Position numbers and translations under genes: made by a program
The notes under the pieces: generated by a model
What the model was told of the DNA's origin: nothing
What the model saw: only the letters and a program-made list of their open reading frames with translations
Databases searched by the model: none
In this document: piece after piece, positions 42,118-43,662 of the stretch
Layout: every line of letters begins with the position of its first letter
Position numbering within the stretch: position 1 is the stretch's first letter
Assembly: GCA_964507275.1 (NCBI GenBank)
Contig: CAZDPG010000001.1
Span: 20,958 to 84,957, forward strand
DNA length: 64,000 bases
From: an uncultured Candidatus Saccharibacteria bacterium
Lineage (GTDB): Bacteria > Patescibacteriota > Minisyncoccia > Phycocordibacterales > Phycocordibacteraceae
Reading direction: 5' to 3'

Positions 42118-43662
42118 ATGCTTTCATCACTTAAGAAAATGCGTGGAGATAAGAGAGGTTGGTACAAGGTATCTGATCTCGTGGAAGGTCTGGAAGTCGC
42201 CGTGCCGTCAAAAGAAGGCGAGCTTATCTGGGACGAGATCGTCTCCATACGACCTGTCGGACGGGAGCACGTCTACGATATCGAGGTCGATGGCACGCAC
42301 AACTTCGTCGGCAACGGCATCTTCGCGCACAACACGTACATGCTGCGAGCGAGCACCACGCTCGCCGTCACCGGTGAGGTACATGCAAACTCTTTCATTT
42401 CTCCATTTGGGGATGTCGCAGGCGCAGAGGCGGCATCGGGCATCGGGACGACGACGCTCATGGCGGAGATACCATCGGCCGTTCTGACGGCCGATGGACT
42501 GGGCGTAGACCTCTACAAGCTCGCAACCTATAACCTTACGGCCGGAAACGCTCTCGCCGCTCGTATGGACGCCGAAGAAGTGCGCGTAACTTCACTTGAA
42601 ACGCGCGTGGAGGCGCTCGAGAGCGGGGCAGTCTCTTCGGCAAGCGGCTCGCCGATTACCTTCTCGACGTCATCGCTCGCAAGCGCACTCGAGGGATTCG
42701 GCGTACTCATCCGGAATGGTATCGCGCAGTTCAATACGCTCGTGTTCCGCCAGCTCGTGGCAAGCCGTGACGCCGATGGCACGAGCAGTGCCGGCAGCGT
42801 GACGATTATCGGCGGGAACACGATTGCGCAGGTGACGAATTCGCTCGTGATGCCATCAACCAAGGTCTTCGTCACCTTCAACTCGTCGGTCATCGGCAGT
42901 TGGTGGGTCTCGGACAAGACGAACGGCTCGTTCCGCGTAGTGCTCTCTGAGCCGCAGTCGGGCGATGTGTCCTTCGATTACTTCCTCGTGCAGACGGAAG
43001 GGCAGATTGCGACGTCGACGCCGACGGTGAGCTCAGGATCATCGTCAAGCAGCGGCGGACTCGACACAACGGCCCCGATCATCACGCTCCTTGGCGATAA
43101 CCCGCTCCATCTCTCAGTCGGTGGGTCATTCGTCGAACCGGGAGTCACGGTCACGGATAATGTCGACGCTTCCGTTCCATATATCACCTTCGTAAACGGC
43201 ATTGAGATGGAAGCATCCGCAGGATCAATCGATACCTCGGTTCAGACGACGTACATCATCACGTACTCTGCGACAGATACGCGCGGCAACCTGGCTACAG
43301 CGACACGTTCGGTCATAATCGGTAGCGCAACCGCTCCAGGCGACACGGGTAGCACGCCACCAGTGTCTGCCGACACGACCGCTCCGGTGGTAACACTCAC
43401 TGGTGAGGCAGCGATGCAGCTCACGGTGGGGGATACGTTCACCGATCCTGGCGCGACAGCGACTGACGATACTGACGGCGACATCACTTCGAGCATCACC
43501 GTCTCTGGTGCAGTCGACACCGCGACCGAGGGCTTCTACACGCTCACCTACACCGCGACTGACGCCGCCGGCAACACCGGCTCGGTCTCTCGCGTCGTGA
43601 CCGTCGTCGCGGCTGCCGCTCCTGCGCCCGCACCTGCTCCAGAACCCGCACCAGCTATATAA
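42118..43662 (+). CDS. intein C-terminal half (72 aa) fused to 442-aa C-extein with two DUF5011-type Ig-like domains and Pro/Ala-rich tail
   Basis: Blocks F/G 'VYDIEVDGTHNFVGNGIFAHN' followed by +1 Thr (42334); 'DTTAPIITLLGDNPL...VTDNVDASV' and 'DTTAPVVTLTGEAAM...ATDDTDGDIT' are DUF5011 signatures; ORF opens at 41959 but start chosen at MLSSLKK with TATAAT 9 nt upstream. Confidence 0.65.
   Translation: MLSSLKKMRGDKRGWYKVSDLVEGLEVAVPSKEGELIWDEIVSIRPVGREHVYDIEVDGTHNFVGNGIFAHNTYMLRASTTLAVTGEVHANSFISPFGDVAGAEAASGIGTTTLMAEIPSAVLTADGLGVDLYKLATYNLTAGNALAARMDAEEVRVTSLETRVEALESGAVSSASGSPITFSTSSLASALEGFGVLIRNGIAQFNTLVFRQLVASRDADGTSSAGSVTIIGGNTIAQVTNSLVMPSTKVFVTFNSSVIGSWWVSDKTNGSFRVVLSEPQSGDVSFDYFLVQTEGQIATSTPTVSSGSSSSSGGLDTTAPIITLLGDNPLHLSVGGSFVEPGVTVTDNVDASVPYITFVNGIEMEASAGSIDTSVQTTYIITYSATDTRGNLATATRSVIIGSATAPGDTGSTPPVSADTTAPVVTLTGEAAMQLTVGDTFTDPGATATDDTDGDITSSITVSGAVDTATEGFYTLTYTATDAAGNTGSVSRVVTVVAAAAPAPAPAPEPAPAI

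Follow-up and report, generated by a model that had tools for sequence, protein, structure and literature searches.

Genes broken within an intein have been described among phage enzymes of DNA metabolism, in which a single free-standing Vsr-like, GIY-YIG or HNH gene lies between the two halves, and the invading element's 3' end is predicted to supply the start codon and the transcription signals of the downstream fragment, by way of a T4-late-like element or a hairpin (Dassa et al. 2009; PMC2677866). We describe here a locus of this type in a 64-kb stretch of DNA (the window, by which we mean the whole stretch that was analysed). Its central element is the open reading frame (ORF) at 42118-43662, which begins with the C-terminal half of an intein (IntC) and continues into a C-extein. 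We consider it likely that this ORF is the downstream fragment of a fractured giant fibre gene in an ultra-small Patescibacteria (Parcubacteria/Paceibacterota-like) groundwater bacterium, and that the cassette between the fragments supplies its promoter. On this reading the locus is a repaired broken gene and not a system for swapping fibre tips, which is the function that an earlier note on this DNA had proposed.

The likeness to the phage cases extends to several features: the gene is broken within the intein, the halves are in cis on one strand and enclose free-standing gene(s) of putative nuclease type, and intein-free alleles exist. Moreover, the 3' end of the insert abuts the downstream start, with a gap of 10 nt (or an overlap of 8-17 nt in a more distant clade), and is predicted to give the start and the expression signals of the downstream fragment. 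In contrast to the phage enzymes, the host here is a 4753-aa surface fibre of Patescibacteria, the insert is a two-gene cassette, sometimes joined by NYN or Bro-N, and the putative control element is of the -10-only, leaderless type. The range of fractured genes would reach beyond the DNA-metabolism enzymes of phages, to a huge structural protein on the surface of uncultivated bacteria of the episymbiotic type.

The intein itself is best compared to the DnaE split intein (Ssp/Npu), which it resembles as a class-1 HINT intein that is split at the endonuclease-insertion site and whose separately translated halves restore, or here are predicted to restore, one protein; Cys1, the penultimate His and the terminal Asn are kept in both. 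The two differ in the sizes of the halves (96/72 aa here, compared to about 102-123/36 aa), in the +1 residue (Thr rather than Cys) and in the distance between the halves, which lie 2.5 kb apart in one locus here but at distant loci for DnaE; nor is there clear charge complementarity here (IntN 16 K+R/16 D+E; IntC 9/12). A literature search found, in the library that it covered, no paper on split inteins in Patescibacteria/candidate phyla radiation (CPR) or on inteins in giant S74 proteins, an absence that does not prove the arrangement to be new. Together with its many diverged orthologues, this natural split intein (96/72 aa, Thr at +1) would also be a source of candidate protein-ligation tools.

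The split intein and an intein-free allele

The features of the locus, in order along the window, are as follows.

26397-39620, + strand: 4407-aa ORF, giant fibre protein, ending with a Peptidase_S74 domain and then the N-terminal intein half (IntN)
38994..39164, + strand: Peptidase_S74 chaperone domain in the N-extein (PF13884, 60 bits against a cut-off of 22)
39330..39620, + strand: IntN, 96 aa, CVTGDTRLRRRRR...TANHPFL (partial Hint and Intein_splicing matches)
39745..40278, + strand: free-standing ORF with an NYN nuclease domain (PF01936, E 1.4e-14), variably present among relatives
40291..41634, + strand: first cassette gene, 447 aa, with an IS1/IS1595-type zinc ribbon, a possible helix-turn-helix (HTH) and a PD-(D/E)XK-like region
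41637..42107, + strand: second cassette gene, 156 aa, a predicted four-helix bundle; its 3' end bears the -10-like motif
42101..42108, + strand: -10-like element gcTATAAT, read from the sequence; TA[TCG]AAT in 27 of 28 related junctions
42118-43662, + strand: IntC ORF, 514 aa, comprising IntC and the C-extein (Pfam Intein_splicing at aa 32-72)
42118..42333, + strand: IntC, 72 aa, MLSSLKKMRGD...THNFVGNGIFAHN, followed by the +1 Thr (PF14890 at aa 32-72; TIGR01443)

There is a single IntN in the window and a single IntC, and both have the residues expected of a working intein. IntN reads CVTGDTRL...TTANHPFL (39330-39617), with the block A Cys1 and the block B TxxH in place and Cys1-x-x-GDT conserved among relatives. 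IntC ends in VYDIEVDGTHNFVGNGIFAHN|T, with blocks F/G, the penultimate His, the terminal Asn and the +1 nucleophile all present; residues H71, N72, T73, D54 and H61 were invariant in 25 homologues, and IntC matched the DnaB and DnaX mini-inteins in the PDB. The halves lie in separate ORFs, with three ORFs and stop codons between them, while the intein-free homologue (P0007, encoded on contig L160) is one protein.

This arrangement is widespread among relatives. A protein search returned 1240 of them, nearly all unnamed or assigned to Parcubacteria, Kaiserbacteria, Paceibacterota or Minisyncoccia, and 54 of the 120 best protein homologues begin with the same IntC, M(LSSLKK)MRGDKKGWYKVSDL.... 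The order was constant over at least 69 unique loci: S74, IntN, then nothing, Bro-N or NYN, then the 447-aa homologue, the 156-aa homologue and IntC. The host gene is chromosomal, the giant fibre gene being flanked by GAPDH, RpiB, Rpe and transketolase.

From knowledge of the intein family, we infer that the halves splice in trans. In the sequence of events that we propose, a mobile class-1 intein would have inserted just after the S74 domain and the two-gene cassette would have split it, with the NYN gene also coming to lie between the halves. IntC (72 aa) would pair with IntN (96 aa), and trans-splicing would join Gln4311 to Thr+1, yielding a 4753-aa protein with the expected junction ...PGVESQ|TYMLR (peptide QILGSGGVLSLVPGVESQTYMLR). 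Export would then occur via the N-terminal hydrophobic anchor of the giant protein; because the C fragment has no signal peptide, it would depend on splicing for export.

Two observations on the intein lineage may be added here. A run of four to six Arg/Lys residues (LRRRRR; window 39351-39368, IntN residues 8-13) follows block A directly in every IntN homologue, and this run, which is unusual for inteins, occurs in both split and contiguous members. In addition, three to five tandem inteins of the same lineage are found in single giant ORFs in L038, L042, L045, L066, L074 and L077, where they seem to target a repeated fibre motif (…|TY.xGNVGIGTT.P).

The intein-free allele gives a direct comparison. 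P0007 is 86% identical to the query protein over 75% of its length and has neither intein nor cassette. Its contig is syntenic with the window (Bro-N, NYN, LamG giant protein, GAPDH, RpiB, a pilin-like gene, Rpe and transketolase), and because the two share 97.8% nucleotide identity over 3.8 kb of housekeeping genes, they are effectively of the same species. The fibre gene of L160 is unbroken (...ELDART|TFISNAATSTILTVDV...) and runs through a fibre repeat, a second S74 domain that is complete (STRSAK), the coiled coil and the beta-sandwich to both DUF5011 domains and a AAAAPAPAPAPEPAPAI tail identical to that of the window. The window and P0007 share 96-100% of their amino acids over the whole part that begins with 'ALESG' (nt 42613). 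The comparison shows directly that what had been taken for a tip is the normal C-terminal end of the fibre protein, which does not differ between contiguous translation and, as predicted in the window, separate translation.

The similarity is lost around the intein, over a diverged stretch of roughly 3.7 kb. Positions 39273-42613 gave no nucleotide alignment to L160, the S74 region upstream is 69.5% identical, and the junction-proximal part of the C-extein is only 10-50% identical to P0007. The intein therefore has the diverged flanks expected of recombinational arrival with co-conversion, and the simplest reading of these alignments is that intein and cassette came by recombination from a diverged donor, with the flanks co-converted. 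Such a presence/absence polymorphism of the element within one species, bounded by diverged flanks, makes the homing mechanism testable.

We also note that three independent short-read assemblies of groundwater runs contain contigs of ~3.9 kb that are 100% identical to window 38856-42849 (L177-L179) and that begin at 38856 or 38857, where similarity to the intein-free strain falls. The ends of these contigs may reflect an assembly bubble, arising where strains with and without the intein occur together, or a break at repeats. A further contig, L176, corresponds to window 31643-52107.

The -10-like element before the IntC ORF

The earlier note had drawn attention to a TATAAT 9 nt before the ATG at 42118 and took the ORF to be probably independently transcribed. 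The position is as it described: the hexamer, a perfect match to the -10 element of a sigma-70-type promoter, occupies 42103-42108, exactly 9 nt from the start codon, within the junction ...gtcaggcTATAATatcattatcATG, and it includes the TAA (42105-42107) with which the 156-aa ORF before it stops. By itself, a single TATAAT in one sequence is no more than chance, as the 64-kb window contains 13 of them, compared to 16 +/- 4 expected from shuffles (no enrichment). A sigma-70 consensus scan of the + strand found no -35/-10 pair at the IntC start, and neither a -35 hexamer (best match 2/6) nor an extended -10 TG before the ORF. An Rfam search around the IntC start returned no riboswitch, and RNA folding of 42070-42170 gave no hairpin and no sequestered start, the region being unstructured (z = +0.87). 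We rejected a longer, 567-aa ORF from 41959 on two grounds: it overlaps with the coding sequence of the 156-aa protein, and homologues keep the start MLSSLKKMRGD.

The window organism and its relatives appear to use -10-only promoters set directly before start codons. Essentially no Shine-Dalgarno sequences were found across the window, and -10-like hexamers lie 4-14 nt before 5 of its 48 gene starts (6 hexamers, two of them at the IntC gene itself, compared to 0.8 expected). We examined 201 long ORFs from the window and from the loci of 15 relatives, with the IntC ORFs left out, and found that such hexamers peak sharply 6 nt before the ATG (19, compared to 0.48 expected per position) and form a shoulder from 7 to 12 nt; the genes concerned include those for the housekeeping proteins Rpe, GAPDH and RpiB. 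There was no -35 consensus among the 30 clearest promoters of the clade. Since these too lack a -35, its absence at 42103 says little, and we dropped it as evidence against a promoter. TAnnnT hexamers also stand before the window gene starts at 19124, 52322, 53931, 15542, 53047 and 51000, and before that of the minus-strand gene starting at 14600.

Leaderless, -10-only promoters are described for Actinobacteria and Deinococcus. The signals of this clade are like them in having TAnnnT a few nt before the start, no Shine-Dalgarno and no -35; the IntC junction differs in that its 9-nt spacer (4-21 nt in relatives) would give a very short leader and not a 5'-terminal AUG. We propose that gcTATAAT at the 3' end of the cassette acts as a -10-only promoter of the kind that yields the leaderless mRNAs of this clade. 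Transcription would begin at 42114-42118, ~6-7 nt past the hexamer, with a leader of 0-4 nt and in addition to any read-through, and translation would proceed independently of a Shine-Dalgarno sequence on an unstructured 5' end.

The motif is conserved at homologous junctions, of which we gathered 69 unique examples (a minimum figure) from genome and metagenome contigs. In the close clade, [a/g][g]cTA[T/C/G]AAT lies 4-21 nt before the IntC start codon in 27 of 28 junctions. Hexamer positions T1, A2, A4, A5 and T6 are invariant (27/27) and position 3 is T in 22, C in 3 and G in 2, while conservation of the flanking columns is 41-93% and the spacer is constant in neither length nor sequence. L087 has a Bro-N gene between the 156-aa ORF and IntC, and there the motif has stayed at the 3' end of the 156-aa ORF, leaving IntC without one; therefore, the -10-like signal belongs to the 3' end of the inserted cassette.

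The alternative that survives best is that TATAAT is incidental, its letters all belonging to the 156-aa ORF (the Leu codon CTA, the stop TAA and the T behind it, which is favourable in that place), and that the C fragment is made only from a long operon transcript, by translational coupling or re-initiation; the fractured gene and its trans-splicing would be unchanged. Several observations favour it and weigh against a promoter of its own for the IntC ORF. In the window and in most relatives, the Leu codon and TAA stop of the upstream ORF fall within the hexamer, and part of the hexamer's conservation could thus reflect coding and termination context. The IntC ORF starts 10 nt after the upstream ORF, both being on the same strand, and there is neither a terminator in the gap nor a -35, a spacing that fits co-transcription equally well. 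Its spacer of 9 nt (mode 9-10 in relatives) exceeds the 6-8 nt canonical for the clade, with its peak at 6 nt, and the mRNA would have a leader of 2-8 nt instead of being leaderless in the strict sense; the lone hexamer, as noted, is not above chance within the window. Finally, a more distant clade has no motif at all, and its IntC ORF begins 8-17 nt before the end of the upstream ORF. The overlap suggests that the two are expressed as an operon and coupled in translation, and an operon is clearly enough in that clade.

Nevertheless, the pattern of variation argues against coding and termination context as the full explanation, and we regard an incidental origin as unlikely. In L004, L102, L104, L006 and L090, the upstream ORF ends in a shifted frame, with its stop farther downstream, yet T1, A2, A4, A5 and T6 are kept and only position 3, the least important position of a -10 element, differs. 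In L082 and L091, the Leu codon of the 156-aa ORF is altered (CTA or TTA) at its first base, which lies outside the hexamer, and no Leu codon varies inside it. The stop codon inside the hexamer is never TAG or TGA, although the adjacent codons vary freely, and in L011 the motif is intergenic. Moreover, the cassette's own genes have no such motifs before them, whereas the starts of transcription units in this clade do. Thus, an own promoter for the IntC ORF is a plausible prediction, and independent transcription, as the earlier note had it, has partial support: the conserved -10-like signal fits it, but read-through across a 10-nt gap that lacks a terminator is equally possible. If the promoter is as predicted, these junctions offer rare comparative evidence that an invader supplies the promoter of an orphaned gene half, a step that is only postulated in Dassa's model.

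The C-extein and the tip-swapping proposal

The C-extein, numbered from its first residue, is made up as follows.

42334..42612, + strand: junction-proximal part, aa 1-93; about 40 variable residues, half of a second S74 domain and the start of the coiled coil
42511..42621, + strand: long helix, aa 60-96, ending in a near-invariant ALESG (AlphaFold2 (AF2) model, pLDDT about 84)
42781..42993, + strand: small beta-sandwich, aa 150-220 (AF2, six strands, pLDDT above 90)
43063..43329, + strand: first DUF5011 domain, aa 245-332, starting 'DTTAPIITLLG' (PF16403; AF2 Ig-like, pLDDT about 95)
43372..43623, + strand: second DUF5011 domain, aa 345-430, starting 'DTTAPVVTLTG' (best Pfam stretch aa 426-496 of the 514-aa ORF; AF2)
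43609..43662, + strand: Pro/Ala-rich tail AAAAPAPAPAPEPAPAI and stop codon

The earlier note had read two DUF5011-type Ig-like domains and a Pro/Ala tail in this extein, and from them a distal adhesin tip; the domains and tail are there as it described. PF16403 (Bact_surface_Ig-like, formerly DUF5011) matched in two stretches (E 5.4e-37, 126 bits against a cut-off of 27), with PDB homologues in 2kpn and the Ig domains of chitinase-60. A 37-residue helix, the beta-sandwich and the two Ig-like domains make up the AF2 model, whose pLDDT averages 79.5 over the C-extein and exceeds 90 in the domains. Foldseek searches with this model returned only generic tandem Ig linkers and stalks (chitinase-60, BT2262, Big_3, SraP and Rib) and neither a lectin nor a receptor-binding fold was recognised. 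The two Ig-like domains are modules of a generic kind that act as spacers in surface proteins, and the case for an adhesin tip is weak. In relatives, the tails are Thr/Ser-rich or very short instead of Pro/Ala-rich.

The remaining parts of the C-extein lie before these domains. The remnant of the second S74 domain is its C-terminal half, which aligns to the second S74 of P0007 and is without the Ser-Lys motif (the STRxAK part is missing); Pfam found no complete S74 domain in the C-extein ORF, whereas the relatives P0017 and P0020 (class B, see below) keep one. The long helix is probably a trimeric coiled coil, judging from the model and from a likeness to designed trimeric coiled coils that is weak (E about 0.003), and its residues L88, E89 and R91 are invariant. 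The beta-sandwich (aa 150-220) found no Pfam match and no family by Foldseek; many of its columns are near-invariant (SWWVSDK, VSFDYFLVQT).

The S74 domain of the N-extein, upstream of the splice junction, bears on where the C-extein would end up. Its Ser-Lys motif, SDERLK, is intact (Ser codon at 38994), and ASDERLK aligns with phage tail-fibre chaperone domains and is identical in 8jov. In phage fibres and in MYRF, S74 trimerises, cuts at that serine and frees all residues C-terminal to it. The present protein is like the phage tailspikes and tail fibres (K1F endosialidase, T5 pb1) and MYRF in having PF13884 with S-D-x-R-x-K at the end of the N-extein, and in having a coiled-coil helix after an S74 domain, here the second, partial copy in the C-extein. 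It differs in that the phage S74 is the extreme C-terminus and is discarded, whereas here about 460 residues follow, comprising the intein junction, the half S74, the beta-sandwich and the two Ig-like domains. After export and trimerisation, S74 would cut itself at the SDERLK serine and leave the C-extein on the released side. By this analogy, the C-extein is probably a C-terminal assembly module rather than a permanent tip. It counts against this step that we infer self-cleavage from the phage and MYRF homologues only.

At its other end (26397-26800), the giant fibre protein begins with a DNA-binding motif of the HTH_17-like kind, after which comes one hydrophobic helix (…SLALGVALVVVALGAVGANAAAL…). 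With a putative DNA-binding head in the cytoplasm, a fibre of 4400 aa outside the cell and an S74 cleavage module, the protein would recall MYRF in reverse.

Consider next the proposal of the earlier note as a whole, namely that an independently expressed receptor-binding tip is ligated through the split intein, such that alternative tips could be joined to one fibre. Some of what we found is in its favour. The earlier note had suggested a search for other intein-C/C-extein ORFs in related genomes, and the junctions recovered (at least 69 unique) show IntC ORFs across Patescibacteria with differing C-exteins of several classes, from 300 to more than 1800 aa; the segment just past the splice junction is unusually plastic, forming a deletion series, and an own promoter is plausible. 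Many C-exteins begin with the fibre repeat TYISGNVGIGTTSP, and what follows the junction can be grouped as below.

Class A (window): 40 aa and a half S74 domain
Class B (P0017, P0020): full repeat and second S74 domain
Class C: about 12 aa and a half S74 domain
Class D (L008, L097): direct entry to the coiled coil

In comparisons of window 42334-42612 to P0017, P0020, P0007, L004, L008 and L097, the losses past the junction are graded, the fibre repeat going first and then the second S74 domain. The alignments make this series look like decay or remodelling at the DNA level and not exchange at the protein level.

The remaining evidence speaks against tip swapping, and we consider it very improbable. 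IntN and IntC are paired 1:1: wherever the contig of a split locus extends at least 2-4.7 kb upstream, a single IntN lies in cis at a distance of 1.6-4.7 kb from the start of IntC. There is a single IntC in the 64-kb window, which contains no further intein halves or DUF5011 tips, and no two close copies share an assembly among the best 80 of 161 genome hits. In the intein-free conspecific strain, one contiguous gene encodes the same C-terminal module, and the differing C-exteins accompany different host fibre genes that share the insertion motif (S74 | TY..GNVGIGT). To this are added the position of S74 upstream of the junction and the generic nature of the Ig-like spacers. A phage-borne tip was considered and rejected, as a scan of IMG/VR gave no contig with a close IntC or cassette.

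To our knowledge, only the Mu Gin/P1 Cin invertible C-terminal cassettes and the tips varied by diversity-generating retroelements (DGRs) truly exchange or vary a C-terminal fibre tip. The present cassette has one weak likeness to these systems, in that its 156-aa protein shares the four-helix-bundle fold class of DGR Avd. It differs in that no invertase, reverse transcriptase, template repeat or alternative cassette was detected here, and in that exchange would have to occur at the protein level, for which we found no second IntC-tip. The locus opens no route to tip swapping, and the IntC-first 'DUF5011 proteins' annotated in Patescibacteria would be better described as the tails of giant fibres than as stand-alone surface proteins.

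Least probable of all is that the intein halves are dead relics and the 514-aa product stands alone, never joined to the fibre: splicing is a prediction and the C fragment may own a promoter, but dozens of diverged homologues all keep Cys1, TxxH, the block F Asp/His, His-Asn and Thr+1, a signal peptide is missing from the fragment despite its surface-type domains, and the intein-free orthologue is a single polypeptide.

The genes between the intein halves

Homologues of the 447-aa protein, 50-90% identical, lie between IntN and IntC in essentially all split loci. Its scores were 21.9 bits for PDDEXK_1 (E 2e-4, against a cut-off of 22) and 31.5 bits for NF050000 (cut-off 28). Since the first of these is borderline, so is the assignment as a nuclease, which counts against our reading of the locus. 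Homologues of the 156-aa protein (169 clusters, 27-88% identity) always lie immediately upstream of IntC, save for the Bro-N insertion in L087. Pfam and NCBIfam returned nothing significant for it; the AF2 model is a four-helix bundle (pLDDT 84), whose nearest folds, with weak E-values, are 2RLD and 2GSC in the PDB (23S-rRNA-IVS/S23 family) and DGR Avd. Neither Pfam nor NCBIfam found Vsr-like, GIY-YIG or HNH domains at the locus. Homologues of the two-gene cassette (window 40291-42107) occur in about 60 loci, and homologues of the 447-aa gene are also found outside split inteins (L047 4477-4608; L055 6414-7794).

The NYN domain recurs in contiguous members of the lineage. Related inteins with an in-frame NYN between the splicing regions occur at L027 5902-7155 and at L071 4233-5432 and 8700-9692, as well as in giant Patescibacteria proteins of L024, L044, L045, L054, L058, L062, L065 and L076. 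From its position, NYN may be a nested intein nuclease, perhaps a homing one; a literature search found no paper that combines an NYN domain and an intein.

We raise only tentatively, as a doubtful possibility, that the cassette pair represents an undescribed gene-fracturing homing family on Patescibacteria fibre inteins, with an outward-facing -10-only promoter and with NYN as a new type of homing endonuclease. Were this the case, the promoter at the 3' end of the element would keep the severed fragment expressed, the amount of C-module would be uncoupled from that of the 4407-aa N fragment, and completion of the fibre could be regulated post-translationally.

Other genes around the locus also vary. 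Two PemK/MazF-like toxin genes lie nearby (44691-45185 and 50475-50861), the first preceded by a zinc-finger ORF at 44492-44731, and L160 is without the first toxin gene at the corresponding position. Bro-N changes place among syntenic loci, lying after the C-extein ORF, in the gap between IntN and the nuclease gene, or in the gap between the 156-aa ORF and IntC (window 43666-44514; L002 2000-2824; L008 7350-8171; L087 about 4695; L160 2807-3280). Its 5' context (tatataaggtATG) is alike in the window, L087 and L094, and from these positions Bro-N looks like a small mobile gene.

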